DNA of 64,000 nt from Croceibacterium sp. (GCA_039927815.1 JBDSUJ010000034.1:1170-65169), one strand, 5' to 3'. Shown: positions 11,839-64,000, numbered from the stretch's first letter. Program-made: numbers and translations. The notes: a model not told the origin generated them from the sequence alone.

Positions 11839-12204
11839 CTACTTGTTTTCGAGAGTGGTCTTGTCGGCCAGGACGACTCTCACCAGTGAACCGCCTAACT
11901 TTCCGTTTATCAGCGGATGATAAGTCACGGTGACTTGGTCGCCGGGCTTCAGCGACGAGCGGCGCCACCCGCCATGAACGAGGTTGTTGGGGCTGGTCAT
12001 CTCGATGGCGAAGTTGCGTTTGGTGCCGCGAGTGTCAGCGACATCAACATGCATCCATGAATGCGGGTTGGTCCACTTGAAGTCGGTCACTACGGCTGCC
12101 GTGGTGACATCCTTCTTCATGTCGAACATGGCGAAGCTATGGTGCGCCAACGCCGCGCTCGAGGAGGCGGCCAGGATCAGGGTCACGACTGTCTTGCTGT
12201 GCAT
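11839..12204 (-). CDS. Small secreted DUF6152-like protein (paralog A1)
   Basis: 121 aa. Signal peptide ends AALA, followed by HHSFAMFD. Conserved W.NPH, GWRRSSLKPGD. One of four paralogs in the window. Confidence 0.8.
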   Translation of the reverse strand: MHSKTVVTLILAASSSAALAHHSFAMFDMKKDVTTAAVVTDFKWTNPHSWMHVDVADTRGTKRNFAIEMTSPNNLVHGGWRRSSLKPGDQVTVTYHPLINGKLGGSLVRVVLADKTTLENK

Positions 12205-12216
12205 GGTCTGCGCTCC

Positions 12217-12633
12217 TCAGTTCGTGGTCGGGACGTTGATCGGGCCGGTGCCGGTACGGATGTCGCCCAGCACGCGGCCGTCCGCCATCGTCACGTTCTT
12301 AAATAAGCCGCCCTTCTTGCCGCTCCGCAGTGGATTGAGGACCAGCGTCACCTTGTCGCCGGCTTTCAGAGACGAGCGGCGCCACCCTTGCCGCGTGAGA
12401 TTGTTCGGGCTGTTCAGCTCGACGCTCCAGCGCACTGGGGGTCCGCTTGCACCGGCGACGTCGAGTTCGATGAAAGCGTGCGGGTTGGTCCACTGGAATT
12501 GAACAACCTGGCCTTTGAGGGTGACGGCTTTGGCCTGGTCGAACATGGCGAAGCTGTGGTGGGCGCTGGCCGGGGCGGCACTGGTCACCGCCACCAGGGC
12601 GGCTCCGGCGATAATGGGGTTCCAAAAGCTCAC
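12217..12633 (-). CDS. Small secreted DUF6152-like protein (paralog A2)
   Basis: 138 aa. Signal peptide ends PASA, followed by HHSFAMFD. Conserved WTNPH, GWRRSSLKAGD. 12 nt upstream of paralog A1. Confidence 0.8.
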   Translation of the reverse strand: MSFWNPIIAGAALVAVTSAAPASAHHSFAMFDQAKAVTLKGQVVQFQWTNPHAFIELDVAGASGPPVRWSVELNSPNNLTRQGWRRSSLKAGDKVTLVLNPLRSGKKGGLFKNVTMADGRVLGDIRTGTGPINVPTTN

Positions 12634-12648
12634 GTCAGGTCCTTTCGC

Positions 12649-13539
12649 TCATTTCGTCTTTGCGCGCTCGTCCAGCGTCTGCTGACCGCGGTCGGTGCCG
12701 GGCAGGTTGGCATTGCGTGCCTCGGTACATTCGACCTCGCCAATGTCCGCTTCTGGCACTCGGTCCCACCGCTTGGTGTTGTGCCACTCCCCTTTCCAAT
12801 TATCGGGGTCGGTCATGATATATTCGATTTCGAGGACCTGCCCCGCGTTGAGAAGCTTGATGCGCTCCACCATGTGAAACTTCTCGCCGACGGGCAGTCC
12901 CTGATCGATCCAGTGGTGATCGGTTTCAAAGCCCTGCGTGTCCACGATCAGCGTGTCGTCCTCCCAATGGCCGAGGGATTCGCCGTTGTACGTCGGAACA
13001 TAGATGTCGGGATCGGTATGCGCGCGGCCGTCGAGGTAGATGGTGCGGAAACTGTTGGTGAAGCCGGCGGTCATGTAGATGGCCGTCGGTACCTGGACGA
13101 ACATGATCGGCCACACGCGCGTCATGATCATCGGCATGCCGGCGGGATAGCATTGGCCGATGCTGTCGCGGTAATTGACGCCGCGCGCGCGAGACGCCGC
13201 ACCTTCGACGAGAGCTTTTTTTCCTGCGTCGTAAAACTCGGGATAAGGCGGCCCGAACATGAACTTGTTGAACCCGGCGCTCAGGTCGATGAACCAGGTT
13301 CCGGTCATGTCGAACGGCGGCTTGGGCCGCGGCTTGGCGAGGTTGGCCGGATCGAGTGCGCCCGCGAGGCCGGGATGGCGTTGCTGCATTACTTCGAGCT
13401 GTTCGGGCGGGATGGCGCGCGTTCTGTCTCGCTCCTGCGCGGCAACCGGCGCGACAGCCACCACGACCGCCGTCAGCGCCAGCCCGCAGTGGCGGGCACA
13501 CCTCGTCAAATCGATGGCACCAATGGTCCTTTTTGTCAT
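12649..13539 (-). CDS. Periplasmic protein of unknown function (partner family, copy P-A)
   Basis: 296 aa. N-terminal signal/anchor GLALTAVVVAVAPVAAQE. Shares motifs C.P.GMP.IM, R.IY.DGR.H.D, GESLGHWEDDTLIVDT, HMVERIKL and ECTE with ORFs 61529-62278 and 62733-63521. Confidence 0.75.
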   Translation of the reverse strand: MTKRTIGAIDLTRCARHCGLALTAVVVAVAPVAAQERDRTRAIPPEQLEVMQQRHPGLAGALDPANLAKPRPKPPFDMTGTWFIDLSAGFNKFMFGPPYPEFYDAGKKALVEGAASRARGVNYRDSIGQCYPAGMPMIMTRVWPIMFVQVPTAIYMTAGFTNSFRTIYLDGRAHTDPDIYVPTYNGESLGHWEDDTLIVDTQGFETDHHWIDQGLPVGEKFHMVERIKLLNAGQVLEIEYIMTDPDNWKGEWHNTKRWDRVPEADIGEVECTEARNANLPGTDRGQQTLDERAKTK

Positions 13540-13722: not shown

Positions 13723-16323
13723 ATGACGACACAGGGGGCGACGTCGGGATTTGGGCTGCAGGCGATTCGATCCACGGCGCTGATCGGTGCCGGCTGGCTC
13801 GCACTAGCGGCAAACGCCGCACACGGGCAGGCAGTCGCCCAACAGCCGCGGGCGACCGACGCCAACGCCGCCAAGGACGCCAACGGCACCAACGCCGAGA
13901 GCGATGACGGCACGCGGACCACGGACATCGTGGTGACCGCTGAACGCCGAGCGATGAACCTGCAGGATACGCCGCTCTCGATCCTGGCGGTGACGCAGGA
14001 GACGGTCGAGGCAAAGGGTATCCAGGATCTTCAGGACCTGTCGCACTTCACGCCGAACCTCAACATCACGCCGACGCGCGGCAACGGCACGGGTGCGGTC
14101 AACTTTACCATCCGAGGCATTTCAGGCGGCGGCGGCGCGGCAGGCGAGCGCGGCGTCGGCCTTTATGTCGACGGCATTTTCATGCCCCGCACCAGCGGCT
14201 CCGTGCTGCGCGTGCTCGATATCGACCGGATCGAAGTGCTGCGGGGGCCGCAGGGCACCCTGTTCGGACGCAATTCGACCGGCGGCGCGATCCGAATCTT
14301 CAGCAAGCAACCGACCGATGTTCTCGAAGGCTCGCTGGAAGTCACCGGCGGAAATTTCGATCGTCGTGATGTTGTCGGCATGATCAACGTGCCGCTCGGC
14401 AATGGCTTCGCGGTGCGGGCGCAGGGCGCATACCTCAACAAGGGCGGCTTTGTCCGACGTGGTACCGAGATGCTCGGCGCCGAAAGGGATTATGTTGGCC
14501 GCATTCAGGTGGCGGGTGAGTTAACTCCTGACCTAAAAATCACCGCAGGCTTTCTCTACAACAAGTCGGAAGCCAACGGTTCGCCGTTCGTGGTCCAGGA
14601 ATTCGACTTGCGGCCTGGCATCGACGGGATCATCCAGGGCAATTACGGCGGCTGGCTAAACGATGCCTTCAAGGCTGCGGGCCAAGCACCAATCGCGCCT
14701 TATAACGACCCCCGCTTTGTCAAGGGCCCGTACGCGGCGTCGGACGTGTGCTTCCTCGATGATTTCGACCCCGATTACGACCCCGCCTGCAACCAGATCA
14801 ACAATGATGACTACTGGCAGGCAGATTTGCGGATCGACTGGAAGCCGACCGACGATTTGAGTGTGCACTCGATCTCCGGTTACTCGAAGCTCAAGCATCG
14901 GGCGCAGAACGATCTGGAAATGATCGGCTTCGAACGACGCTATGACGACATCGATTCAAAGGTATTCTATCAGGAACTGCAGCTCAACGCGGCGCTGCTT
15001 AACAACGCGATCGATCTGGTTACCGGTGTGACGTACTTCCACGAAGACAGCGCGGCGCCGAACAATTACGTTCTCAACCGGCGCGGCACCGCCACGTATC
15101 CGAGTAACAAGGGCAATCCGCCCAATTCAGACGGCGGCCTGTACACGCGCACTATCAGCGACGTGTTCCAGACCTCGGATTCGTTCGGGCTATTCGGCAG
15201 CGCCACCTGGCACATCATCGACGGCCTCAACCTGACGGGCGGCTTGCGTCAGGCGTGGGACCACAAGGACTATCGCCAGAACCGCTACCAACCGCCGACG
15301 ACGCAGTTCCAGGGCCCCGACTTTGTCTTTCGGCCAGGAGTGACTTCGTCATCCGCATCGAAGAGTCAGTCGTTCCAGGCGCTCGATTATCGTGCGACGC
15401 TCGATTATCACTTCACGCCCGATATCATGGCCTATGCCACGGTATCCAAGGCGTACAAAGCAGGCTCCTTCAGCGCGACGCTACAGGGCTACACCCCACC
15501 CCCGGCCACGGCACCGCCAGGCACCTTGGGCATCGGCGGCGACGCGAACCAGGACAGTATCGTCGCGACGCTGCCGAATGAAAAGGTCATCAATTACGAG
15601 GCGGGCGTACGCGCCACGCTGTTTGATCGCCGCCTGCGGATTAACCCGACCATCTTCAAGATGGAATGGAGCAACCGTCAGGCGGCCGTGCGCGTCAATT
15701 GCGGGACCGCGGGGACGGCGCTTGCTAACCTGGTCGCCGGCAGCGCCGCGTGCCCGGTCGGCTTCTTGCCACTTGTGCAGGACCAAGGCACCGCTAAGAT
15801 CAAGGGCCTCGAGGTTGATGCGCAGCTCGTGCTGATCCCTGGGCTGACGCTGGACGGCAACCTGGGACTGACCGATTACAAGCTGACCAATGTTCCGGTC
15901 GTTGCGGCGGGCGCGTTCCCGATCGCTCACTTGTTCCCCGACATTCCTAAAATCAGCTACAGCCTGGGCTTCTCTTACGGCATCCATGAAGCCTTCGGGC
16001 GGGCAACGATGAGCGTGAACTACGCGTTCGTCGGCAAGCAATGGGTCTACCCCGACGACAATCCCGATTCGACCTACCGGCTCCCGTCCTATGGCCTGGT
16101 GAATGCGCGGTTCCAGATCGAACCGGCCAACTTGCCGATCACTTTGACGATCGCAGCGAACAACCTGCTTGGCGAAGTTTACGCGACTTACGCCCAGCGG
16201 TTCGGCGGCGGGTTCTGGGATTCGGGCGCAGGTACGGGCATTGCAGCTCCGCCGCGCAATATGCTGAGCGTGGTTCGTGGCCGCCCGCGCGACCTGAGCC
16301 TGTCGCTGAAGTACAGCTTCTGA
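13723..16323 (+). CDS. TonB-dependent receptor (cluster A)
   Basis: Real start is ATG 13723, preceded by GAGGGGGGAAG. Signal peptide ends ANAAHG. Plug-domain motifs DIVVTAERR...LQDTP.SI and IEVLRGPQGTLFGRNSTGGAIRI. C-terminal barrel ends SLKYSF. No N-terminal signalling (STN) extension. Confidence 0.9.
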   Translation: MTTQGATSGFGLQAIRSTALIGAGWLALAANAAHGQAVAQQPRATDANAAKDANGTNAESDDGTRTTDIVVTAERRAMNLQDTPLSILAVTQETVEAKGIQDLQDLSHFTPNLNITPTRGNGTGAVNFTIRGISGGGGAAGERGVGLYVDGIFMPRTSGSVLRVLDIDRIEVLRGPQGTLFGRNSTGGAIRIFSKQPTDVLEGSLEVTGGNFDRRDVVGMINVPLGNGFAVRAQGAYLNKGGFVRRGTEMLGAERDYVGRIQVAGELTPDLKITAGFLYNKSEANGSPFVVQEFDLRPGIDGIIQGNYGGWLNDAFKAAGQAPIAPYNDPRFVKGPYAASDVCFLDDFDPDYDPACNQINNDDYWQADLRIDWKPTDDLSVHSISGYSKLKHRAQNDLEMIGFERRYDDIDSKVFYQELQLNAALLNNAIDLVTGVTYFHEDSAAPNNYVLNRRGTATYPSNKGNPPNSDGGLYTRTISDVFQTSDSFGLFGSATWHIIDGLNLTGGLRQAWDHKDYRQNRYQPPTTQFQGPDFVFRPGVTSSSASKSQSFQALDYRATLDYHFTPDIMAYATVSKAYKAGSFSATLQGYTPPPATAPPGTLGIGGDANQDSIVATLPNEKVINYEAGVRATLFDRRLRINPTIFKMEWSNRQAAVRVNCGTAGTALANLVAGSAACPVGFLPLVQDQGTAKIKGLEVDAQLVLIPGLTLDGNLGLTDYKLTNVPVVAAGAFPIAHLFPDIPKISYSLGFSYGIHEAFGRATMSVNYAFVGKQWVYPDDNPDSTYRLPSYGLVNARFQIEPANLPITLTIAANNLLGEVYATYAQRFGGGFWDSGAGTGIAAPPRNMLSVVRGRPRDLSLSLKYSF

Positions 16324-16385: not shown

Positions 16386-16880
16386 CTACGACAGCCCGCT
16401 CGCAGGCTCATCATCGACAGGCGGCGAGCGTTGGGCATCAACGCGCGTGGCGATGGTGGTGAGGGTCGTATCAAAGACCAGCTTCTGCTTCGGGGTCAGG
16501 TCCTGCAGGATCGCTTCGAAATAGCGGGTCCTCATCGCGGTGATCTTTTCGAAAACCTCGCGCCCGGCCGGGGTTTCCGTGATAATCTTGAATTTGCGGT
16601 TCCTGGAGCTTGATTCCCGCACCACCAGGCCATTGCGGATCAAAGAAGCAACCGCGCGGCTGACCAGGCCCGGGTCGATCTCGAATGACGACGATACGTC
16701 GACGGCAGTCGCGGGCCCAAACGAACAAGTCACCGCGATCACGCGCCATTCTGACACCGACACGTTGAACCGGGCTTGCATTTCGCGGGCCAGTTCGCGC
16801 TCCACCATGCGGGTCAACAGGTGCATCCGCAAAGGGATGAAATACTCGCCAGTCTGGCTCCAGGTGCGAGGCAAGGACAT
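16386..16880 (-). CDS. MarR family transcriptional regulator
   Basis: 164 aa. Winged-helix core VSVSEWRVIAVTCSFGPATAVDVSSSFEIDPGLVSRAVASLIRNGLVVRESSSRNRKFKIITETPAGRE. Confidence 0.85.
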   Translation of the reverse strand: MSLPRTWSQTGEYFIPLRMHLLTRMVERELAREMQARFNVSVSEWRVIAVTCSFGPATAVDVSSSFEIDPGLVSRAVASLIRNGLVVRESSSRNRKFKIITETPAGREVFEKITAMRTRYFEAILQDLTPKQKLVFDTTLTTIATRVDAQRSPPVDDEPASGLS

Positions 16881-53264: not shown

Positions 53265-54947
53265 TTGGGACCACGGAGCCACCGACGCGCAGGCAGTCGC
53301 TCCGTGCCCCTCGTCGCCGTAGCCTTGTTGGCCGGCCTGTGCGGCACGGCCGCAGCGCCGCAAAAGGCCGCTGCGCAAGCGGTTTCCAGAGGCGATGGAG
53401 ACCGGTGCGCCGCCCTGGCGCGAGTTGCCATGGCAGGCGTCAATATAGAAACCGCAGAGCTTGCTGCCGCTGGCCCGATGCTCAACCGCCCAACCGGCAG
53501 CGGACCTGCGCAAGCATTGCCCCAGCACTGCCTGGTGCGCGGCACGATCAATCGCCGCGTCGGTGTGGGGGGGCGCACGTTCGGGATAGGGTTCGAACTG
53601 CGCATGCCCCTGTCGTGGAACGGCCGGTTTCTGTTCCAGGGGGGCGCGGGGCTAGACGGCGTGGTCGCACCCGCCACTGGAACGACGTCAAACTCGGCAC
53701 TGCCGCCGGCGTTGACGCGCGGGTTTGCGGTGGTGTCGACTGACGCGGGACACAGCGGTTCTCCGATCGATGCCTCGTTCGCAACGGACCAGCAGGCACG
53801 CGTCGATTACGGCTACAACGCGCTCGATAAGGTAACGCTGACCGCCAAAGCGCTGATCACCGGGTTCTACAGCGAGGCACCGCACTTTTCCTATTTTGTC
53901 GGCTGCTCCAACGGCGGGCGCCAGGCGCTGACGGCCGCGCAGCGCCTGCCGCTTTATTTCGACGGCATTGTCGCCGGCGATCCGACGATCCGCTTTTCAC
54001 GCGTGACGCTTGACCAGGTCTTCAACTTGTCGGTGCTCGCGCGCATCGCACCCAAGGATGCCCAGGGTCGGCCAATTTACTCGCGCGCATTTTCGGACGC
54101 CGACCTGAAACTTGTGCGCCAGGGGGTGCTTGCCCGTTGCGATGCCACAGACGGCCTCGCGGACGGCATGATCAATGATTGGCAGTCGTGCGGTTTCGAT
54201 CCGGCCGTCCTGGTTTGCAAGGGAACGAAGTCGGCAACCTGTCTAACCCAGGCGCAGGTTGAGGTCCTCCATGACCTTCATCGCGGTCCCCGCGTGGCGG
54301 ATGGAAAGCTCGCCTATGGCGCGTTCAACTACGACACCGGCATCGCCTCATCCACTTGGCGCGGGATGCGGCTGGGCACTTCGGATACCGGTACCGCCAA
54401 TGCCGCCGACGCGACGCTCGGCCTCGGGGCGTTCCGCTACCTCCAGCTTACGCCGCACGATGCCAAATTCGATCCCCTGACCCGGCTCGATGTTGACGAT
54501 CTGGTCGAGCGCACGCGTGTCACGGCCGCCTTGACCGATGCGGACGATCCGTTCCTCGCCACTTTTGCGGCCCGAGGAAAGATGATCGTGTACAACGGTT
54601 TGTCTGACCAGGGCCTCGCGTCGAGCGTCCTCGTTGATTGGTATGACAGGATGCTCAAGGCAACCGGGGCGGGCGCGCGGGAATCGGTCCGCCTGTTCCT
54701 TGTGCCGGGAATGCTTCATTGCGGTGGGGGCGAAGCGACCGACCGGTTCGAGATGCTGGACGCGATCATGGACTGGGTCGAAGGTGGTGCGGCGCCCGCG
54801 CGCATTGTCGCGGCATCCAGTCGCGAGACAGGGCTCACTCGGCCTCTGTGTCCTTATCCCGCCACCGCGCATTACGCGGGAGGCGACGTGAATTCTGCGG
54901 CGAGCTTCACCTGTTCAATTCGCTCACGGTCTGGTGCCCCATCTTAG
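53265..54947 (+). CDS. Secreted tannase/feruloyl esterase family hydrolase
   Basis: Family-specific Cys-Ser nucleophile motif YFVGCSNGGRQAL paired with PGMLHCGGG near the C-terminus. Signal peptide LVAVALLAGLCGTAAAPQKAAAQA. Start is TTG 53265 or, more likely, GTG 53304. Confidence 0.85.
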   Translation: MGPRSHRRAGSRSVPLVAVALLAGLCGTAAAPQKAAAQAVSRGDGDRCAALARVAMAGVNIETAELAAAGPMLNRPTGSGPAQALPQHCLVRGTINRRVGVGGRTFGIGFELRMPLSWNGRFLFQGGAGLDGVVAPATGTTSNSALPPALTRGFAVVSTDAGHSGSPIDASFATDQQARVDYGYNALDKVTLTAKALITGFYSEAPHFSYFVGCSNGGRQALTAAQRLPLYFDGIVAGDPTIRFSRVTLDQVFNLSVLARIAPKDAQGRPIYSRAFSDADLKLVRQGVLARCDATDGLADGMINDWQSCGFDPAVLVCKGTKSATCLTQAQVEVLHDLHRGPRVADGKLAYGAFNYDTGIASSTWRGMRLGTSDTGTANAADATLGLGAFRYLQLTPHDAKFDPLTRLDVDDLVERTRVTAALTDADDPFLATFAARGKMIVYNGLSDQGLASSVLVDWYDRMLKATGAGARESVRLFLVPGMLHCGGGEATDRFEMLDAIMDWVEGGAAPARIVAASSRETGLTRPLCPYPATAHYAGGDVNSAASFTCSIRSRSGAPS

Positions 54948-55021
54948 CGGCGCGTACCCCGTGTGTTGCGTGTTCGCTTAGCGGTTGGCTCTCGGAGCAA
55001 AACGACATGAAGGAGCCATGC

Positions 55022-55549
55022 ATGACGATTTGGAAGGACAAGTCTAGCCTGGCCGCCGCAGCGTTCCTGGCGTTCATGCCGGCAACCACTGCCTTCGCTC
55101 AACAAGCGCCGCTGACGGTCAGGTCACTGGCCGATCGGGCGGCGATTTCCGACTTGCTTACCAGCTATTACAATAACTTCGGCGGCGGTGTCGGAAGCAA
55201 GGTTGGCGAGTACTATGCCGAGGACGGCGAAATGGTCCTCGGCCAGAACCACTACAAAGGCATCGCGGCGATCAAGGGCGCCTATGCCGCGGTTCCCGCC
55301 GACGCGCCGCAGCGCAAGTCCTTCGCCCTCAACATCCTGATCAGCAACCTGCTGGTCACGGTTCACGGCAACACGGCCACGGCGCGACTGGTATTCACCG
55401 AAACGACCATCGAGAAGCAGGGCGACGCACCCAAAATCCTGACCCAAGGTCGGGAGTTCGATAATCTGGTCAAGCGCAAGGGCCGCTGGCTAATCCTGAA
55501 GCGCCAGATCACGGGACCCAAGGGAGTGCCCGACGACTGGCGAGACTGA
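55022..55549 (+). CDS. Secreted NTF2/SnoaL-like domain protein
   Basis: Signal peptide MTIWKDKSSLAAAAFLAFMPATTAFAQ, with GAAGGAG upstream. I.DLL..YY......, the ...G...A...F.E.. pattern and the RKGRWLI tail are typical of SnoaL_4-like proteins. Confidence 0.7.
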   Translation: MTIWKDKSSLAAAAFLAFMPATTAFAQQAPLTVRSLADRAAISDLLTSYYNNFGGGVGSKVGEYYAEDGEMVLGQNHYKGIAAIKGAYAAVPADAPQRKSFALNILISNLLVTVHGNTATARLVFTETTIEKQGDAPKILTQGREFDNLVKRKGRWLILKRQITGPKGVPDDWRD

Positions 55550-55568: not shown

Positions 55569-56129
55569 CTAGCGGGCCGCGCGAGGATCCTTTTCGCCGA
55601 GGCCCGGATAGAACAGCGACTTGTTCTGGCGCGATTCGTTGTACACGACGCGTTTCTTGAACTTCCACTCGCCATTGATCCGCGCGAGCTCGTCTTCGTA
55701 GTGGCCCATGAAAAGCACTTCGACCTGCCCGTGAGTGGTCTTGTTGGTCAACGCGAACCAGTACGCGAAGCTGGTGGCGGTATCGCCATTGACCATGATC
55801 ACGTGGTTCACGATCTGGTGCTGGTTGCGCTGCCGCTCGGTCGCGCCGACCGGGATCGTGCCCATCACCGCGCCGCCGCCGAACTTGCTCATCGCCTTGC
55901 GAATGGCAGCCGCGCCATGTTCAACCCCGCCGACCCAGTCGAGCACGCCATCGTCGGCCCAGGTTTTCATCACAGTTTCAATATCGCCGGCGTCGACCGC
56001 CACCATGTAGTGGTTCGACATATTCTCGATCAGCGCCCGGTCGTCGGCGTAGCTGTTCTTGGCGCTGACCGGGCTTGCGGTCATGGCTAGCGCCATCGCG
56101 GCCAGAGCTATCAAAGCTTTTTCAATCAT
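55569..56129 (-). CDS. Secreted NTF2/SnoaL-like domain protein
   Basis: Start MIEKALIALAAMALAMTASPVSA, with AGGGGGAAG upstream. DRALIENMSNHYMVAVDAGD...W.DDGVLDW and INGEWKFKKR are characteristic. Confidence 0.75.
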   Translation of the reverse strand: MIEKALIALAAMALAMTASPVSAKNSYADDRALIENMSNHYMVAVDAGDIETVMKTWADDGVLDWVGGVEHGAAAIRKAMSKFGGGAVMGTIPVGATERQRNQHQIVNHVIMVNGDTATSFAYWFALTNKTTHGQVEVLFMGHYEDELARINGEWKFKKRVVYNESRQNKSLFYPGLGEKDPRAAR

Positions 56130-56166
56130 GCTTCCCCCTTGTTCCGGCCGTTTACGACGGCCGCGA

Positions 56167-57762
56167 TCACACCAGTGGCAGTTCAACCGCTGACGCCCAT
56201 ACTCCATGCACCTGGCTGCTCAGCTTGAACGGCAGGATCACGCGGGCAAGATCGCCGTCTTCCATGCGCTCGGCGTCAAGGATGACGAGTTCCGAGCGGG
56301 CTTCGGCGAAGTTGCTGGCGACCCCGACCAGGTAGCCGTGGCCTTCTCCGCCGCCCTTGCGGGGCACGAAGGTCAGCTCCTGCAAGCCATGCGTGGGTCC
56401 GGTGAAATACTTGTGCAGCTCGCCGCTCTTGAGGTCGAAGCGACCGTAACTGTTGACCGGCGGGCGGGCGAGACCCGGCGAATGGGCGCGGTCGAACGGC
56501 CTCTCCGGATCGACGAACGAGGTGTAGAGATAGCGCGTTTCCAGGCTGAGGACCTGCGGGTCGACTTTGCCGAGGTCGGAGATGCTCGTCGGCCACAACA
56601 CCTCTTCGGTCCACCCGCCGCTGCGCGAGGACATGTCCAGCGTGATCTTGCGCACCAATGCGCGCGCGAGTTCGGGCTGGAACGGGGTGCCATCGACATT
56701 GGGGAAGAAGGGGAAGAAATTGCCGTCATAAAACGGGGCATACAGGACGACCTTATGGCCTTCGTCGTGGGCGTTGAAGGTGTGCATCATGCAGCGCAAC
56801 GGACCTTCGAACCAGCGCATGTCCTTGGCCTCGCCGTCGCGTGGCAGCACTCCGATGCGGCTCCGTTGGGTCTTGTCCCAACCCCAGTGAACCTTGCCGC
56901 TCTCCAACCGCTCCGGGCTGGTAACGTAGCCGGCGAAGGGGAAGATCATGTGCTTCTGGGTCAGCGCCATATCATGCATGATGCTGACATACGGGACGCG
57001 CGTGCGAATCTCCTGTTTCACCACACCACGCGAATCGAGACGGTAAACCCACAACGCATCGCTGGCGAGCCCGTCGGCTTCGTTACCGTAAGCGATCATG
57101 TCTCCGGAAACCGGATCGATCTTGGGATGGGCGGTGAACGTCTGGCTTTTCCAGCCGCCGTTGAAATCCCAGGTGCCGATCGTCGCCAGCGTGTTGGGAT
57201 CGATCTGGTGCGGGAGTCCGTCTTCCTTGAGCGCAAAGAGCTTGCCATTGTGGACCAGCGGTGCGGTGTTGGCGACGGTGCGGCGGTTGGGATGCGCGGG
57301 ATCCCGCACCATTGGATCATCGGTATAAGGGTTGCGGTAATAGCCGTAGAGCTGCCGGCCGGCGGACCGAAGCCGGGTGAGGCGCTCGGTCTCGATCCAG
57401 CGGCCTCTGAAGTCCACCTTGCCGTTCTTGATGCGGAACATGCTTATATAGCCGTCGGCATTGAGAGGGGCGTCGTCAGGGAACTTCGGCGGATAGTAAA
57501 ACTCGCCGCCCACGCGGTAGAAGGCTCCGTCCATGTCGGTGGGGATCTTGCCGACCACTTCGCAATCGCGGACTTCGGCGTCGAACCTCAGCGGAGCGTT
57601 GAAGCCCCGTCCCGGAGCTGTGTTCGCCAGCGGATTGAGCGACTTCCCATCCCACGGCGACGGGCTGCCATCCGCGTCACCAGCTTGGGCCCGGGCGGCG
57701 CCGGCGGCCTGGGCAGCAACCACCGTGCCGAGTGTGGCGCCCATGAACTCTCGCCTCTTCAC
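56167..57762 (-). CDS. Carotenoid cleavage oxygenase family protein (lignostilbene dioxygenase-like) with twin-arginine signal
   Basis: GTG start (VKRREFMGATLGTVVAAQAAGAARAQA) overlaps the upstream stop (GTGA). Body motifs FNAPLRFD.E, G.IP.D.DG.FYR.G, TAHPK.DP..G and HDMALT match RPE65/CCO enzymes. The usual four conserved His positions appear to be present. Confidence 0.85.
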   Translation of the reverse strand: MKRREFMGATLGTVVAAQAAGAARAQAGDADGSPSPWDGKSLNPLANTAPGRGFNAPLRFDAEVRDCEVVGKIPTDMDGAFYRVGGEFYYPPKFPDDAPLNADGYISMFRIKNGKVDFRGRWIETERLTRLRSAGRQLYGYYRNPYTDDPMVRDPAHPNRRTVANTAPLVHNGKLFALKEDGLPHQIDPNTLATIGTWDFNGGWKSQTFTAHPKIDPVSGDMIAYGNEADGLASDALWVYRLDSRGVVKQEIRTRVPYVSIMHDMALTQKHMIFPFAGYVTSPERLESGKVHWGWDKTQRSRIGVLPRDGEAKDMRWFEGPLRCMMHTFNAHDEGHKVVLYAPFYDGNFFPFFPNVDGTPFQPELARALVRKITLDMSSRSGGWTEEVLWPTSISDLGKVDPQVLSLETRYLYTSFVDPERPFDRAHSPGLARPPVNSYGRFDLKSGELHKYFTGPTHGLQELTFVPRKGGGEGHGYLVGVASNFAEARSELVILDAERMEDGDLARVILPFKLSSQVHGVWASAVELPLV

Positions 57763-58679
57763 TTGTCGCCGCCCGAGGTCCACGGTGAGCGTTGGTAGTA
57801 CGGAGCTTGGTAGAATGTCGCCACCACGGCGGCGATGCACCCATCCTGGACCTTGAACATCTCAAGAAACGCCCAGCTCTGCGGTTCCTGGAACACCGAC
57901 TTCGCCTTGGTCCCGTCGGTTAGAAGATAATCGTCGAGCACACCCTTGTGATCGATAAAGCCGCGCGCCATCGCAATCTGGCGCTCTTCGTCCACCAGCA
58001 CGATTTCTCGCCGCACCCGGTTGTTGAAAGCGTACCGCCCAGACCGGAAGCCGCCACCGATATCGGCAAACAGCATGCCGTTTTCCCGCCGCGTCGCATC
58101 GCTGCGAAAACAGGTGCCGCGGATTTCGCCGTTGTTGTGCTGGAGGGTGTCGAAATAGCCGTTCGCGTGGGCGATCAACTGTTGTCGGCTGAGTCGTTTC
58201 TCTCTCGGCGCAGTCTGCATGATAATGGGATCGTGGACGTACTCGGACACCTTGCCGATTGGCGTGGGCGGGCTGCTCAGGTTCCGGCGGGTCGAAATCA
58301 CATGTTCGACCTCGGTGATTCTTCCGCCAACGACTTTGAGGCGGATCGCGAGGAAGCCTTCTATTTCGCGTTGCCGTGTCGCGGTGAATATGCCGACTGC
58401 TCCCAGCCGCGGATCGGACAGGATGAGCGCCGGCCCGGGCTCTTGCGTCACGGTGTCCCAAGTCCCGTCGGTAAACGGCATTGCGACATTGTTTTCCGTA
58501 AAGCGAACTCGGGCGGCAAACGGGGCCAATTTGGGATCGTGAGCGAGGTAGGCAGCGCGGTACTTGGCCGCGATTGCTTCAAGGCAGACCCGGTCGCAAG
58601 CTTGGGGTTTTGCGGCGAGTCCCGTCGGCACCGCCGCGGTCATCATGAGACAGGCAACAAGAGCCCTCAGGAATTTCAT
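57759..58679 (-). CDS. Secreted protein of unknown function (306 aa)
   Basis: Signal peptide MKFLRALVACLMMTAAVPTGLAA. GGGGAGGA Shine-Dalgarno. Translationally coupled to the oxygenase gene. No family recognised. Confidence 0.65.
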   Translation of the reverse strand: MKFLRALVACLMMTAAVPTGLAAKPQACDRVCLEAIAAKYRAAYLAHDPKLAPFAARVRFTENNVAMPFTDGTWDTVTQEPGPALILSDPRLGAVGIFTATRQREIEGFLAIRLKVVGGRITEVEHVISTRRNLSSPPTPIGKVSEYVHDPIIMQTAPREKRLSRQQLIAHANGYFDTLQHNNGEIRGTCFRSDATRRENGMLFADIGGGFRSGRYAFNNRVRREIVLVDEERQIAMARGFIDHKGVLDDYLLTDGTKAKSVFQEPQSWAFLEMFKVQDGCIAAVVATFYQAPYYQRSPWTSGGDK

Positions 58680-58909
58680 GTCAGGTGATCCTCCCCGCGA
58701 GCCTACCTTTACCGGTAAGTCTCACCCAATATTCATGGCGCGCCGAATATTCTTGATCGCACTTTATCAGGATGAGTTGACTACTCAACCCAAATGACGG
58801 CACATCGGCAACGGGACCGACAAATTTACAAAGCCCGCGGGGGCCGATCTCGGGCGTATTTGCGTCCTGGTCGAGACCCAACCAGCGCGGCAACAGGGGG
58901 GAAATCACG

Positions 58910-61477
58910 ATGAAGGCAATTCGAATCACGGCTGGTGCACTGACCGTCAGCAAAATGGGCCTGGCAATCGGGTTGGCGATGGGGGCTTCGGCAACCTTCG
59001 CCCAAGGTACCCCGGTTACACCCAAACCTGCCGATGACGGCACCGGCGAGATCGTCGTCACGGCACAGTTCCGCGAACAGAACCTTCAGGACACACCACT
59101 GGCCATCACCGCGGTCAACGCCGCGCTGCTGGAGGCGCGCAGCCAGACGGACATCAGCCAGGTGGCCAACCAGGCGCCTTCGGTCACTCTTAAGCCCCAG
59201 GGCGCGGCGTTCGGACCCGCGTTGGGTGCCAATATCCGGGGCGTAGGCCAGTTCGACTTCAATCCCGCGTTGGAACCGGGCGTCGGGTTCTATGTCGACG
59301 ATGTGTACTACGCCACGCTTACCGGCTCGATCCTCGATCTGCTCGATCTGGACCGGGTCGAGGTCCTGCGCGGACCGCAGGGAACCCTGGCGGGCCGCAA
59401 CTCAATCGGCGGCGCGGTCAAGCTCTATTCGCAGAAGCCCACGGGCAGCGGCACGGGATATGTCTCCGCTGCGTACGGCAGCCGCAATCGGGTCGACTTG
59501 CGAGCCAGCGCCGACTTTCATCTCGCCCAGGGCGTGGATGTCCGCCTGTCGGGCGTTTCAAAGCAGCAGCAAGGGTACATCGATCGGCTCGACTTCGGCT
59601 GCGTCTATCCCGCGGGCGGCACGGCCACCTTTGTTCCGGCTTTCCCCACTGCGACAAATCCCACCATGGCGCCAATGCTGGTCAATCCTGTCGGCGGGGT
59701 CCCCGCGCGAACCAACAATCCCGGGTGTCTGGCCGCGAAAGAAGGCGAAGTGGGATTCATCGCGCTCAGGGGTCAGGTCCGCCTGCGCCCGACCGACAAT
59801 ATCGATATCAACCTGATCGGCGACTACACCGATGACGACCGCACCGCGGCGGGCACGGTGATCCTGCAGCGCAATTATCCGGACGGCACCGTGGCCAGCC
59901 CGCGCTATCCGCTGCCGCTGATCCCCGCTCCCGGGTCCTCGCCCGCGCAGAATTATGCGACCGCCACCGCACCGACCCGGGACATCAACCCGTTCGCCGC
60001 GCCGAACACGCTCCTGTCATACGACAACCGCTTCCTGTGTGGGCCCTATTGCAACTACGCGACTTACGACAATCCGGCTGATGGCCCGTTCCGAGCCTCC
60101 ACGGCGGATGGGCGCGTCCATTTCAAGGGTTGGGGCGTCTCGGGCCAGGTTGACTGGGATCTGTCCAAGGCATTCCAGGTCAAGTCGATCACCGCCTACC
60201 GGGCCTACACCTCGATATTCGCTAACGACAACGACGCCTCTCCGCTCGCACACAGCCTCGGCTACGGCCCGCTGACATTCTCGTTTTTCAGCCAGGAACT
60301 GCGCCTCAACGGTTCGGTCGGCGATACCATCGAATATACTCTGGGCGGTTACTACAGCACTCAGAAGTCGGTCTATGCCTCGTTCCAGGACTTGCGGTCC
60401 TCGGCGCTTGAATTCCAGCAGCGCGATCCGGTTAACGCCGACAGCAAGGCGGTCTTCGCGCACGTCGCGTGGAACCCGATCGATCCTCTGACCCTCACCG
60501 GCGGCATCCGCTACACGAAAGAATCGAAAGACTACACTTACATCCGGGAGCGGCCCTACAACGATCCGACCGCAACGACTGCAGCCGCCGTCCTGCCGCT
60601 CAACGGGACCGTCGGCCACTACGAAGGCGACCGGATCGATTACCGCGCGAACCTGCAATACGCGATCACCGACGACGTGATGGCGTACGTTCAGTATTCG
60701 ACCGGGTTCAAGGGCGGCGGTGTCAATCCGCGGCCGTTCTTCGTCCAGCAGGCACTGCCGTTCAGCCCTGAAACGCTCGAGGCATACGAAGGCGGCCTCA
60801 AGACCGATCTGTTCGACCGGCACGTGCGGCTCAACCTTGCGGCTTACCTCAGCAAGTACAACGGCATCCAGTTGTCGCTCGGCAACTGCACCGCGATCAC
60901 GGGCGTGGGTTTCGGCGCGCCGTGCGCCCTCCCGGTCAATGCGGGCAATGCGGACATCAAGGGTTTCGAGGCTGAAACCACCATCAAGCCGATCGCTGGC
61001 CTGACCATCGATGGCTCGCTCAGCTATCTTGATTTCAAGTACAAAAGCTTCGGTACTTTCACCTCCGGCACGACCACCGTATCCGTGGGCGGACCGACCA
61101 ATCTCAACGGACCGCAGTACGGCAACTATCCTCCGTTCACTCCGAAGTGGAAATGGAGCGCGGGCCTCCAGTACGAGATCCCGCTCGGCACATCCGGCTC
61201 GCTCACGCCGCGGGTGGATGCCTCGTACCAGGGCACGGTATTTGCTGCCTCGGCCAACCGCCCGAGCAATCGCATCGAGGCTTACACGGTTGCCAACGCG
61301 CGGATGACGTGGCGCAATGAGCAGGAAGACCTGAGCATCTCGGTCGAGGTCACCAACCTTTTCGACGAGTACTATCTGCTGACGATTTTCGACCAGACCG
61401 TGGGCGGCCAAGGATACGCGACCGGCCAGCCCGGGCGCCCGCGCGAATGGGCGATCAGCGCCAAGAAAAAGTTCTGA
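58910..61477 (+). CDS. TonB-dependent receptor (cluster B)
   Basis: 855 aa. Signal peptide ends SATFAQG. Plug motifs GEIVVTAQFREQNLQDTPLAI and VEVLRGPQGTLAGRNSIGGAVKLY. C-terminal ...WAISAKKKF. Confidence 0.9.
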   Translation: MKAIRITAGALTVSKMGLAIGLAMGASATFAQGTPVTPKPADDGTGEIVVTAQFREQNLQDTPLAITAVNAALLEARSQTDISQVANQAPSVTLKPQGAAFGPALGANIRGVGQFDFNPALEPGVGFYVDDVYYATLTGSILDLLDLDRVEVLRGPQGTLAGRNSIGGAVKLYSQKPTGSGTGYVSAAYGSRNRVDLRASADFHLAQGVDVRLSGVSKQQQGYIDRLDFGCVYPAGGTATFVPAFPTATNPTMAPMLVNPVGGVPARTNNPGCLAAKEGEVGFIALRGQVRLRPTDNIDINLIGDYTDDDRTAAGTVILQRNYPDGTVASPRYPLPLIPAPGSSPAQNYATATAPTRDINPFAAPNTLLSYDNRFLCGPYCNYATYDNPADGPFRASTADGRVHFKGWGVSGQVDWDLSKAFQVKSITAYRAYTSIFANDNDASPLAHSLGYGPLTFSFFSQELRLNGSVGDTIEYTLGGYYSTQKSVYASFQDLRSSALEFQQRDPVNADSKAVFAHVAWNPIDPLTLTGGIRYTKESKDYTYIRERPYNDPTATTAAAVLPLNGTVGHYEGDRIDYRANLQYAITDDVMAYVQYSTGFKGGGVNPRPFFVQQALPFSPETLEAYEGGLKTDLFDRHVRLNLAAYLSKYNGIQLSLGNCTAITGVGFGAPCALPVNAGNADIKGFEAETTIKPIAGLTIDGSLSYLDFKYKSFGTFTSGTTTVSVGGPTNLNGPQYGNYPPFTPKWKWSAGLQYEIPLGTSGSLTPRVDASYQGTVFAASANRPSNRIEAYTVANARMTWRNEQEDLSISVEVTNLFDEYYLLTIFDQTVGGQGYATGQPGRPREWAISAKKKF

Positions 61478-61488
61478 CCAAACTGATG

Positions 61489-61511
61489 GGGCGCCGGCTT
61501 GTTCGGCGCCC
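61489..61511. terminator. Hairpin between the convergent TonB receptor gene and the cluster B minus-strand operon
   Basis: GGGCGCCG (61489-61496), loop GCTTGTT, CGGCGCCC (61504-61511). No clear U-tract on either side. Confidence 0.45.
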
Positions 61512-61528
61512 TCAATGCCATGCGTTAG

Positions 61529-62278
61529 CTATTTGCCCGCGGGCGCATCGCGGTTCTGGTACTCAAGCGCGAAGCTGGGATCGCATTCATAGGGCAGGAT
61601 GTGCAGGCCCTGGCGCGTCCAGCGGATGAAGCGTGCGCCGGTGTTGTCCAGCACCGCTGGATCCTCAAACCACTGCGTCGCCATCAACGACTTGCCGTCC
61701 GCGCTCAGCTTGTAGCGTTCGACCATATGGATGCGGTCCGAATGATCGAGCCCGTTGTTGGTGATGGTCGACGCGGCCAAGTGGTCGGTGTCGACCACCA
61801 GCTCGTCGCCGTCCCAGCGGCCGATCGAATGGCCCATCTTGGTGTGCGGGAAATCGGGCCCGGGGTGGCCCCTTCCGTCCATGAATATCACGCGTACCTG
61901 ATCGTAATATTCGTAGCGGAAGATCAGCGCGTCATGCGTCTGTTCGACTTCGAAGGGGAATGGGCCCTGCACGGCATAGACGATCGAGGGCGGCACGCAG
62001 ACCTTCTGCAAGGTCATCTCGTCCTCGGCCTTCCAGGTTCTCGCCTTTTCCAGCGCCTCCGGCTTGAGTTTGAGGCCGCCGAATTCCATTCTGCCGAATT
62101 CGGCCGGGCCGCTGTCGGCGAGGATGACGCTGCCCGGAGGCAGCTTCGCTGCCAGACCCGGCTCAGGCGCGAGGTCCGAGGCCGTGAAAGTGGGGCCCCA
62201 ATAGCCTGACAAGTCGGGCTCGGCGAGCGCGGCGCTCGGGACGAGCAGCAGAAGCGAGGCAAAAGCTATTAGGCGCAT
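61529..62278 (-). CDS. Periplasmic protein of unknown function (partner family, copy P-B1)
   Basis: 249 aa. Signal peptide MRLIAFASLLLLVPSAALA. Shares VCVPP, RVIFMDGRGH, GHSIGRWDGDELVVDT, HMVERYKL and PYECD with P-A and P-B2. Its ATG shares 1 nt with the upstream stop. Confidence 0.75.
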   Translation of the reverse strand: MRLIAFASLLLLVPSAALAEPDLSGYWGPTFTASDLAPEPGLAAKLPPGSVILADSGPAEFGRMEFGGLKLKPEALEKARTWKAEDEMTLQKVCVPPSIVYAVQGPFPFEVEQTHDALIFRYEYYDQVRVIFMDGRGHPGPDFPHTKMGHSIGRWDGDELVVDTDHLAASTITNNGLDHSDRIHMVERYKLSADGKSLMATQWFEDPAVLDNTGARFIRWTRQGLHILPYECDPSFALEYQNRDAPAGK

Positions 62279-62667
62279 CAGCTGTCGGTCTTGCCAAAAG
62301 CCGACTTGCCAATGGGCTTGCCGCTGGAGTCAGAGGCGGCGCGCAGGCGGGCGTAAGGTTTGCCATCGCGCGATGGCCACCCCTCGATGGTAATCACATC
62401 GCCTGCCTTCAGGATGTCACGCGTCCATCCCCGGCGTACCAGGACAACCGGTGCATTGGTCTCCACTCGCCACGGAGTTACCGTGCCTTTCGCATCCGTC
62501 ACGTCGAGCGTGATAAGGCCATGTGGGTTGGTGAAGCGAAAGCCTGTCACCTTGCCCTTGATCTTGATGTCCTTGGTATCATCGAAAAACACCGCGAACG
62601 AGTGGTGCGCCTGCGCCGCTGTGCCTGCGCAGCACAGCGCGGCCGCCAGCAATAATCGGTTACGCAT
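62278..62667 (-). CDS. Small secreted DUF6152-like protein (paralog B1)
   Basis: 129 aa. Signal peptide ends TAAQA, followed by HHSFAVFFD. Conserved FTNPH, GWTRDILKAGD. Confidence 0.8.
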   Translation of the reverse strand: MRNRLLLAAALCCAGTAAQAHHSFAVFFDDTKDIKIKGKVTGFRFTNPHGLITLDVTDAKGTVTPWRVETNAPVVLVRRGWTRDILKAGDVITIEGWPSRDGKPYARLRAASDSSGKPIGKSAFGKTDS

Positions 62668-62732
62668 CGATACTCTCCCATTTGGCCAGCGTACGATCTG
62701 GCCAGCTTCCTGACAGACGCCGCGCCGCGCCG

Positions 62733-63521
62733 TTAATCGAAACCCGTGTTGCCATTTTCATCCACCGGATTGCGATCGTTTTCCGAACACTCGAACTCGA
62801 GGAGTTTGCCGTAGCGGTCCCGCCGATACCTGACAGTTACTTCGAACGGCTCGGCCAGCGCCTTGGGATCCTCCATGCGCATCTCGTTGATCAGCACATC
62901 GGGGTTGGCAGGATCGAGATGGAGCCGCTCGGTCAAATGGAAGTTGTCCGAATGCGGCATGCCAGTATCGATATCGAGCGCGTCGGAAATGCCGATCGTA
63001 TCGGCCACCAGTGTATCGCCTTCCCAATGGCCGATGCTGTCACCCATGAAGGTGGGGTCGGGATCGTCCTCGTGCGTGCGACCGTCGGTCCAGATCGTTC
63101 GCGTCTGCATCCATGCTTCCTGCTGGATGGTGACCCGGCCGGGCGCGAACAGGAACTCGTAGGGGTACTGCGGCAGCCGCATGATTCGCGGCATCCCCGG
63201 CGGGCTGCAGTTGGACCGGTTGCGTCTGGTCACTCCCGAGGCCGTACGCGTGGCATTGCGCCACGCCGTGTAGCGGGCCAGGTATTCGCCCTTGAGCTTG
63301 GGCTGCGGCGCCGGCCCGCCGCTGGGGGCACCGCCCATCACGAACCAGACCCCGCCCCAATCGGGCAAGGCGTCGAGCGCGGCGTAATGGCCCTTGGCGT
63401 CGGCCGCGCCGCGACCCGCGGCAACGCCTGCCGGCGGGGGCGAGGCGGTTGCCGCACCAAGCTGCGCAAGCGCAGGAGCCGCCGCCGCTGTCGCGAGCAA
63501 AAATCCGAGCACTAACCGCAC
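62733..63521 (-). CDS. Periplasmic protein of unknown function (partner family, copy P-B2)
   Basis: Preferred start is GTG 63521 (VRLVLGFLLATAAAAPALAQ), 8 nt after the upstream stop. Alternatives are ATG 63557 and 63617. Motifs NCSPPGMPRIM, RTIWTDGRTHED, GDSIGHWEGDTLVADT, HLTERLHL, FECSEND. Confidence 0.75.
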   Translation of the reverse strand: MRLVLGFLLATAAAAPALAQLGAATASPPPAGVAAGRGAADAKGHYAALDALPDWGGVWFVMGGAPSGGPAPQPKLKGEYLARYTAWRNATRTASGVTRRNRSNCSPPGMPRIMRLPQYPYEFLFAPGRVTIQQEAWMQTRTIWTDGRTHEDDPDPTFMGDSIGHWEGDTLVADTIGISDALDIDTGMPHSDNFHLTERLHLDPANPDVLINEMRMEDPKALAEPFEVTVRYRRDRYGKLLEFECSENDRNPVDENGNTGFD

Positions 63522-63528
63522 CGGCCCG

Positions 63529-63897
63529 TCAGCCCACTGTGCCGAGAGTCTTGCCATCGACCAACCTGACCCCGGCATAACTGCCGCCTTTGGTGCCACT
63601 GCGCAGCGGATGAACATAGAGCTTCACCTTATCGCCCGGCTTCAGCGAGCTGCGCCGCCAGCCCTCCTGGGCGAGATTGTTGGGGCTGGTCATCTCGATA
63701 TTCCAATGCTCGCTCCCGTCCGGCGCCTTGATATCGGCTTCGATGAAGCTGTGTGGGTTCTGCCATTTGAACTTGGTTATGGTGGCATCGAGCGCGAGGG
63801 TCTTCTGCATGTCGAACATGGCGTAGCTGTGATGCGCGAGCGCCGGCACAGCCGCGATCACCGCAGCGACGGTGAGGATCAAGGTGGCTTTCTTCAT
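63529..63897 (-). CDS. Small secreted DUF6152-like protein (paralog B2)
   Basis: Start MKKATLILTVAAVIAAVPALA, with GGAGG upstream. Followed by HHSYAMFD, WQNPH, GWRRSSLKPGD. Shares a 23-nt identical DNA stretch with paralog A1. Confidence 0.8.
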   Translation of the reverse strand: MKKATLILTVAAVIAAVPALAHHSYAMFDMQKTLALDATITKFKWQNPHSFIEADIKAPDGSEHWNIEMTSPNNLAQEGWRRSSLKPGDKVKLYVHPLRSGTKGGSYAGVRLVDGKTLGTVG

Positions 63898-64000
63898 CGT
63901 GGCCTCCAACCGCGCACAGGTGGAAAATTTAGTTCGCATGAGGTTTGTCACCGAGTTCGCTCTGTCCACGTTCGGCGGCGGTCTGGCTCCCCAGCTCGGT

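Follow-up and report, generated by a model that had tools for sequence, protein, structure and literature searches.

We analyzed a stretch of 64,000 nucleotides of DNA from Croceibacterium sp. (GCA_039927815.1 JBDSUJ010000034.1:1170-65169; hereafter the window) and concentrated on cluster B, near its 3' end, where genes for small DUF6152 proteins (here S) alternate with genes for a partner protein (P) and converge on the gene for a TonB-dependent receptor (TBDR), T_B. We consider it rather probable that cluster B is a co-directional operon holding two ancient S-P cassettes, the products of which would form a 1:1 complex in the periplasm and for which the receptor is optional. The portion of this reading that concerns the cassettes, their paralogy and the pairing of S with P is the one in which we have high confidence.

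Read along the minus strand, cluster B comprises the DUF6152 protein B2 (63529-63897, 122 aa), its partner P-B2 (62733-63521, 262 aa from a GTG at 63521), the DUF6152 protein B1 (62278-62667, 129 aa) and its partner P-B1 (61529-62278, 249 aa). The operon is convergent with T_B (58910-61477, plus strand, 855 aa), in which Plug (PF07715, 3.4e-16) and barrel (PF00593, 1.1e-39) domains were detected. B1 and B2 are clear members of PF19649 (1.6e-29 and 3e-32; 102.3 and 111 bits against a gathering threshold of 27 bits). The stop codon of B2 is separated by 7 nt from the GTG start of P-B2, and that of P-B2 by 65 nt from the start of B1, while the B1 stop and the P-B1 start have one base in common (TGATG), an ATGA overlap that suggests translational coupling. 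P-B2 could just as plausibly begin at an in-frame ATG at 63557, in which case it would overlap B2 by 29 nt and leave no 7-nt gap. All four S and P genes of the cluster are judged to be real because their GC content at third codon positions (GC3) is of the coding type, 0.72-0.82 (0.80 in B2), compared with 0.44-0.52 at second positions. The stop codons of the two convergent genes are 51 nt apart, and this spacer contains a GC-rich hairpin (61489-61511; GGGCGCCGG-cttgt-TCGGCGCCC) with a 9-bp stem and a 5-nt loop, a free energy of about -23.7 kcal/mol and z-scores of -2.0 (plus strand) and -2.7 (minus strand). It has no T-run and was not called by a terminator scan of positions 58500-64000; it is possibly a bidirectional terminator. 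The gene order, the two gaps, the one-base overlap and the convergence on a TonB receptor across a GC hairpin had all been described in an original prediction made from the sequence of the window alone, and each was found in its place.

Pairing of S and P extends well beyond this genome. A one-genome-per-species scan yielded 546 confirmed partner loci, and the counts given below come from the best 80 of these 546, which belong to Sphingomonadales, Caulobacterales, several gammaproteobacterial groups, Acidobacteriota and one Verrucomicrobiia metagenome-assembled genome (MAG). Taking adjacency to mean a DUF6152 gene no more than 400 nt from a full-length partner gene, we found it in 64/80 loci, spanning Sphingomonadales, Gammaproteobacteria, Caulobacterales and Acidobacteriota. 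S preceded P in 42 cases and followed it in 39; in 9 the two genes were on opposite strands. Pairwise distances among S and among P proteins co-varied over 58 adjacent pairs, with a Mantel r of 0.79 that none of 2000 permutations reached and that is inflated by common species history. The nearest neighbours of S and P agree as well, and the three units of the window were assigned congruently, for S and for P, to different orthologue sets, an observation independent of that inflation. S and P were also found fused in one frame, in seven stop-to-stop open reading frames (ORFs) at five loci. A search of the partner profile against 1.84 billion representative proteins retrieved 13,209 representative clusters at E<=1e-3, and all four of the long single-P-domain proteins tested (411-487 aa) have one signal peptide, then an N-terminal PF19649 domain and, after a linker, a complete P domain. 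An artefact of ORF calling was ruled out as the source of these fusions, since the stop-to-stop ORFs and the independent database proteins agree. DUF6152 itself gave at least 7,939 matches in the database search.

Based on adjacency, co-phylogeny and the S-P fusions, it is strongly supported by comparative sequence analysis that DUF6152 and the partner form a functional pair, and the pair is probably physical too. The 1:1 alternation of the genes in cluster B had been taken in the original prediction as support for pairing, with the proviso that absence of the adjacency from other genomes, or unrelated histories of the small and partner genes, would speak against it; the adjacency counts and the distance comparison both came out in favour of pairing. 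We also observed P-P tandem fusions (P0252, P0262, P0274, P0275 and others) of 450-530 aa, with two P domains behind one signal peptide and no other Pfam domain, and many Acidobacteriota loci are arranged as P, short P, S.

The two units of cluster B have separate relatives. Identity is 32% between B1 and B2 and 29% between P-B1 and P-B2, while B2 reaches 48% with the small proteins of a second cluster in the window, above its identity to B1. This second cluster, cluster A (11839-13539, minus strand), consists of P-A (12649-13539), S-A1 (12217-12633) and S-A2 (11839-12204) and is divergent from the TBDR gene T_A (13723-16323, plus strand); the coordinates bear out the order partner, DUF6152, DUF6152 that had been predicted for it. 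S-A1 and S-A2, which carry the DUF6152 label in the source MAG annotation, are clear PF19649 members like B1 and B2, and P-B2 is homologous to both P-B1 and P-A. Orthologues of B1/P-B1 were found in L001 (81/84% identity) and in L002-L006, L084 and L085 (57-80%), and those of B2/P-B2 in L069, L115 and L110 (69-74%) and on a plasmid of Croceibacterium atlanticum 26DY36 (L162, locus tags WYH_RS16150-16165; 64/66%), with P-B2 orthologues present in L069, L115 and the plasmid. Taken protein by protein, the orthologues listed were 61-81% identical for B1, 62-84% for P-B1, 64-74% for B2 and 66-74% for P-B2. The six closest B1-type loci (L001-L006) have the two-gene unit alone in common with the window; neither a B2 unit nor a T_B orthologue is present in them.

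The B2-type unit instead usually makes up the latter half of a conserved block, [P_A]-S_A1-S_B2-P_B2, the first half of which corresponds to P-A/S-A1 of the window (57-64% identity). The block takes the form P S S P in L069 (6061-8561) and L115 (1727-4259), S S in L110 (324-1120) and S S P on the C. atlanticum plasmid (8015-9651); it adjoins a TBDR gene, and a MarR gene is nearby in L069 and L162. In this genome, sequence comparison indicates that the block is split between 11839-13539 and 62733-63897: cluster A has P_A and S_A1 together with an extra, divergent S_A2 that stands in place of S_B2/P_B2, and S_B2/P_B2 are found upstream of the B1-type unit. Because B1 and B2 share so little identity, have closer orthologues elsewhere, and B2 derives from the P-S-S-P block, we conclude from these sequences that cluster B is a pair of anciently diverged paralogous units joined by rearrangement, with no duplication in place. 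The original prediction of an internally duplicated unit is thus not upheld: a recent tandem duplication should leave the two units as mutual closest relatives, and each is closer (60-84%) to units of other genomes. For annotation, the lesson is that an alternating S-P-S-P order need not mean recent duplication, and the comparison defines a conserved P-S-S-P architecture which this genome has divided over two loci.

The promoter of the operon had been placed at or beyond the edge of the window, which we could not substantiate: 103 nt upstream of B2 still lie within the window, with a GGAGG 5 nt 5' of the B2 ATG, and a promoter scan of positions 58500-64000 found no sigma-70-like promoter. Look-ups of the exact B1 and P-B1 sequences, aimed at extending the contig past position 64000, returned no record. 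A candidate divergent ORF (63939-64000, plus strand) begins at an ATG at 63939 (MRFVTEFALSTFGGGLAPQLG...) and continues past the window edge; it would put only ~41 nt between its start and that of B2. The 65-nt spacer before B1 has a GCTGGCC direct repeat. Elsewhere, a perfect palindrome (GCGGTGCTAGCACCGC; about 1610-1630 in L004) precedes the B1-type S gene of that locus by ~45 nt, and L002 and L003 have related motifs, GGTGCTA(A/G)C, at the corresponding site; the regions upstream of S in L002, L003 and L006 were grouped with this observation. The palindrome may be an operator.

In order to assess the link between the cassettes and the receptor, we tallied the 184 genes immediately beside S/P blocks. 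The commonest Pfam families among them were DUF6644 (10 genes), TBDR-type families (8 genes; 4 TonB_dep_Rec and 4 OMP_b-brl_4) and PF04120 (3 genes), and a hidden Markov model built from four TBDRs matched within ~8 kb in only 6/80 S-P loci. The window has four TBDRs (five had been implied by the original prediction). From the receptor side, 80 metagenomic contigs with relatives of T_B were inspected, and S/P genes were present in five of them (L084, L085, L099, L110 and L115). L084 and L085 have the order T>S>P and L099 the order P>T, all with B1-type units and a T_B orthologue 64-75% identical to that of the window; the receptors of L110 and L115 are more distant from T_B (36%). Altogether, an S-P unit is adjacent to 3/21 T_B orthologues. 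The C. atlanticum plasmid has the order S S P T MarR, with a full-length receptor 35% identical to T_B, and in L069 a T_A orthologue (52% over 803 aa) adjoins P S S P and a MarR gene. Adjacency to a TBDR therefore recurs, in L069, L022, L034, L038, L070, L084, L085, L099, L110, L115 and on the C. atlanticum plasmid. The comparison of receptors that had been proposed, run for T_A against T_B, gave ~35% identity over ~240 aa, and the two are not close paralogues. T_B has a TonB-box-like stretch, GEIVVTA, near its N-terminus in addition to its Plug and barrel, features of a receptor whose TonB dependence is predicted from sequence.

The association with a receptor is thus real, recurrent in Proteobacteria and re-formed in different orders, and it is facultative, lying outside the conserved core; a TBDR does not stand beside S-P in most genomes, as an obligate receptor/partner/DUF6152 module would require. 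Of the claim that the association survives rearrangement, the part that stands is the recurrence of TBDR adjacency in several orders; such cases are a minority (~8/184 flanking genes, 3/21 T_B orthologues). Functional coupling of cluster B to T_B itself is a tentative proposal. It is equally conceivable, at rather less than even odds, that the adjacency in cluster B is incidental, T_B belonging with the gene set on its other side and the hairpin insulating the S-P operon. This set, divergent from T_B, encodes exported-looking proteins (55569-58679, minus strand, plus 54719-55549, plus strand): an RPE65/carotenoid-oxygenase-like protein with an RREF twin-arginine-type N-terminus (56167-57840), a 306-aa signal-peptide protein with no Pfam match (57759-58679) and two SnoaL-like proteins. 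T_B orthologues are syntenic with RPE65-like, 306-aa and SnoaL genes in 5/21 cases (L088, L089, L090, L092 and L098), compared with 3/21 for S-P, and T_B may, on this synteny, primarily serve the RPE65-like/306-aa/SnoaL pathway. The convergent orientation with its GC hairpin and the lack of a T_B orthologue beside the B1-type units of L001-L006 also fit an incidental neighbour. However, B1-type units adjoin T_B orthologues on three other contigs in two gene orders, distant T_B-like receptors (35-36%) flank S/P genes in L110, L115 and the C. atlanticum plasmid, and this recurrence exceeds the expectation for a cassette with few copies per genome.

Other membrane proteins are found next to the cassettes. 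Tandem pairs of paralogous DUF6644 (PF20349) membrane-protein genes occur beside S-P in 12/80 loci (L012, L016, L018, L023, L027, L037, L040, L042, L045, L048, L056 and L079) and on a plasmid of Novosphingobium humi (L163, 4089-5064); the window lacks DUF6644 genes. In L001 (7037-7462), L002 (8784-9203) and L003 (4856-5275), the gene immediately following the B1-type S-P unit encodes a PF04120 'low affinity iron permease' (140 aa, 3.9e-49), and an AsnC/Lrp regulator gene lies directly upstream of the unit in L001; tblastn of the window revealed no homologue of the L001-L003 PF04120 protein or of the L001 AsnC/Lrp regulator. BLAST clustering of flanking ORFs in search of a universal third partner gave no family in more than 13/80 loci, and the Pfam tallies of the 184 flanking genes were heterogeneous.

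The S proteins share a striking arrangement of histidines. In all 87 S proteins of the loci, a signal peptide ending in A-x-A is followed directly by His-His, the cleavage site being predicted from sequence, and Asn-Pro-His (NPH) is present in 85/87. B2 has a signal peptide ending ...PALA, a predicted mature N-terminus HHSYAMFD and an NPH loop, and B1 has ...AQA followed by HHSFAVFFD, the NPH motif and Glu69. Across phyla (59 S sequences), A20, H21, H22, P48 and H49 do not vary, and N47 and E69 each occur in 58/59. An AlphaFold2 model of B1 (pLDDT 85) is a five-stranded oligonucleotide/oligosaccharide-binding (OB) fold, the nearest structures being the LysRS anticodon-binding domain and SSB (E ~3e-4), a similarity at the level of the fold only. 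NPH is located in loop L12 of the model and E69 at the end of beta3, that is, on the classical OB ligand face. Sequence searches of the PDB with a single S protein and with profiles of 64-69 sequences returned nothing significant, and NCBIfam has no model matching S.

Histidine-brace proteins have a His as the first mature residue, and their metal site is competent only once removal of the signal peptide exposes His1 (PMC10952591). The predicted cleavage of S would likewise leave His as its first residue, and the invariant H49 of NPH is a candidate second His of such a brace; DUF6152 is absent from the histidine-brace classes listed in that work (PMC10952591). One homologue bears the UniRef label 'Copper-binding protein', which is a label and not a test. 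Because the invariant His sits exactly at the signal-peptidase cleavage site, we put the chances at about even that His-His, NPH and Glu form an N-terminal-histidine metal centre, either brace-like or of the 3-His/1-Glu kind; its ligand would likely be copper or another divalent metal.

The partners P-B1 and P-B2 have no Pfam or NCBIfam match, PDB sequence searches with single P proteins and with profiles of 64-69 sequences gave nothing significant, and we found neither a Pfam or NCBIfam model, nor a solved structure, nor a paper for the family. The AlphaFold2 model of P-B1 starts with ~80 poorly ordered residues, which are followed by eight beta strands, and its best Foldseek matches are CRABP/FABP barrels; the assignment as a lipocalin-like barrel is weak (pLDDT 74, E ~2e-3, TM ~0.5 normalized to the target). 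Conserved features of P are an N-terminal L-S-G-x-W strand (G25, 57/58), C94, R129, E187, R188, D206 and C232, of which G25, C94, R129, E187, D206 and C232 show little or no variation. C94 and C232 presumably form a disulfide, and P has no conserved His or Met.

Together, these observations suggest how the system might work. Cluster B would be transcribed as one co-directional operon carrying a B2-type and a B1-type copy of an autonomous two-gene cassette, brought together by rearrangement. S is a Sec-exported OB-fold protein of ~100 aa, and signal-peptidase cleavage after A-x-A would leave His-His as its N-terminus, so that His1, His2, the NPH His and Glu could form a metal centre. P, also Sec-exported and ~230 aa long, would be an eight-stranded lipocalin-like barrel with one conserved disulfide and conserved Arg, Glu and Asp but no conserved metal-type ligands, which may bind or present a small ligand or dock the complex. 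S and P would work as a 1:1 periplasmic complex that, where a transporter adjoins (a TBDR, a DUF6644 pair or PF04120), handles the transported species in the periplasm. T_B would be an optional, loosely coupled component that may import across the outer membrane whatever S-P handles. Of these elements, the gene layout, family membership, export signals, conserved residues, the OB-fold of S, the pairing and fusion of S with P, the ancient split of the two units and the facultative link to the receptor are demonstrated by the data, while metal binding, formation of a complex and any hand-off from the receptor are deduced from them.

Several observations weigh against this proposal. Classical metal-homeostasis genes are rare among the neighbours of S-P, and a scan of low power for Fur, Zur, CopR, CueR and Irr consensus sequences (mismatches allowed) upstream of S-P units found no recurrent site. 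Several gammaproteobacterial loci have the pair surrounded by housekeeping genes (coaD, rsmD and ftsY types) and no transporter in the vicinity. The only classical copper-associated neighbour seen was a DUF411 protein (CopG-like, PF04214, 1.6e-25) with a glutaredoxin-like N-terminus in a Terriglobia genome (L025, 9522-10025), where its gene lies ~1 kb 3' of a solitary partner gene. A relationship of DUF6644 to CopD was considered and set aside as a lead only: one of four proteins gave sub-threshold matches to CopD (E 0.015) and DUF2214 (E 0.013), and hhalign of a 12-sequence DUF6644 profile against YebZ of E. coli returned a probability of 0.2%. The share of species history in the Mantel correlation and the weak fold assignment of P count on the same side.

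The main rival for function, which we regard as rather unlikely, is that S-P acts as a redox enzyme of the periplasm: S would be its catalytic subunit (N-terminal-His copper or 3-His/1-Glu, cupin-dioxygenase-like), P would hold a small hydrophobic or aromatic substrate, and an adjacent TBDR, where present, would import this substrate. The invariant HH/NPH/E signature of S would suit such a role, as would a P barrel fit for small ligands and devoid of metal-type residues. Genes for exported proteins of the aromatic-catabolism type (RPE65-like with an RR signal, SnoaL, tannase) abound in the window and in related loci, glyoxalase/dioxygenase, ferredoxin and cytochrome c neighbours occur three times each, and the family is expanded in Acidobacteriota, Steroidobacteraceae and sphingomonads. 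Against this, the neighbours of S-P are heterogeneous, with no recurrent catabolic partner, and known histidine-brace proteins other than lytic polysaccharide monooxygenases (LPMOs) are mostly copper carriers rather than enzymes (PMC10952591).

Less probable still is a metal-free S, whose HH/NPH/E face would bind an oligosaccharide, a peptide, a lipid head group or haem, making S-P a carrier/chaperone pair. NPH and E69 are located on the beta2-beta3/L12 face, the classical site of oligomer binding in OB-folds, and P resembles a small-molecule carrier; however, a His absolutely conserved at the cleavage site across phyla is the hallmark of chelation by the N-terminal amine and imidazole, and other explanations for it are hard to find. 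Finally, the notion that a receptor/partner/DUF6152 module had its two-gene unit duplicated in place to give S-P-S-P appears very improbable, for while the 1:1 alternation and tight spacing of the genes and the TBDRs adjoining both clusters of the window speak for it, it is already contradicted by the identity matrix and the orthologue assignments (units only 29-32% identical, each with 60-84% orthologues elsewhere, and B1 a more distant relative of B2 than the cluster A proteins are), by the closest genomes, which have the B1 unit without the B2 unit or the receptor, and by the lack of a receptor at most S-P loci.

Two further features of the window adjoin cluster A and T_A. An extracytoplasmic function (ECF) sigma factor gene with an overlapping putative anti-sigma gene (10444-11797, plus strand) is convergent with cluster A and ends 42 nt from its last gene, and a MarR-family gene (16386-16880, minus strand) follows T_A. 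L069 and the C. atlanticum plasmid likewise have a MarR gene behind the receptor or S/P block, but the proteins encoded are only 26-27% identical to that of the window.

Our preferred reading, a periplasmic S-P pair with a putative metal centre, invites comparison with several known systems. No function has been described for PF19649, and the constant pairing with P and the His-His signature appear in no paper that we found; a literature search for DUF6152, PF19649, DUF6644 and PF20349 found no paper, and one for histidine brace combined with OB-fold only general papers. Joining the two anonymous families, the locus, which consists of rearranged paralogous cassettes, yet exposes a very large, coherent and testable system and a candidate new scaffold for periplasmic N-terminal-histidine metal chemistry. 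In its most ambitious form, DUF6152 would be a new structural class, an OB-fold N-terminal-histidine metalloprotein in an obligate heterodimer with the lipocalin-like P, serving as an O2/peroxide-activating enzyme or a metal-transfer device in thousands of Proteobacteria and Acidobacteriota of soils and sediments, sometimes fed by dedicated TBDRs, a joint claim that we regard as speculative and on balance unlikely. Should the S site bind copper, the few kinds of histidine-brace protein on record would gain a bacterial class, and the system could explain part of the accessory genes at sphingomonad TBDR loci.

CusF and SilF are small periplasmic five-stranded OB-fold chaperones of Cu(I)/Ag(I) that work with envelope transport systems. 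S is likewise a small OB-fold barrel predicted to be periplasmic, but it lacks conserved Met, unlike CusF with its His/Met/Met/Trp site, has no match to PF11604 and is not encoded here with a resistance-nodulation-division (RND)/CusCBA system; the 50 best Foldseek matches of the S model do not include CusF. P may resemble the calycins (lipocalins, FABP/CRABP and siderocalin) in its predicted eight-stranded up-and-down barrel and N-terminal L-S/T-G-x-W strand, and we take its conserved Arg residues to recall the cationic calyx of siderocalin. P differs from them in an insertion of ~80 aa, a conserved disulfide and an apparently obligate OB-fold partner, and its matches to them are weak (E ~2e-3). 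TBDR loci with accessory periplasmic proteins offer a parallel in gene arrangement, with a TBDR gene adjoining genes for exported proteins and MarR near cluster A, in L069 and on the C. atlanticum plasmid; unlike at those loci, the S-P pair occurs without any TBDR in most genomes, and no Fur or Zur box was found in the low-power scan.

The closest parallels to S are the non-LPMO histidine-brace proteins. CopC, for example, is encoded with CopD, whereas S is paired with a lipocalin-like protein and no CopD. No relationship of sequence or Pfam family between S and the histidine-brace proteins was found, and S differs from them in having an OB-fold, with no cupredoxin-like or immunoglobulin-like sandwich, and two consecutive N-terminal His together with NPH and Glu, residues that may bind copper. 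Like CopC, PmoF1, YcnI/DUF1775 and X325/Bim1, S is small and exported and has an invariant N-terminal His plus a further invariant His, and histidine-brace proteins are often encoded beside membrane transport proteins, as YcnI is with YcnJ (PMC10952591). If its chemistry differs from that of such exported N-terminal-histidine metal proteins with accessory partners, the S-P system could prove to be categorically new.

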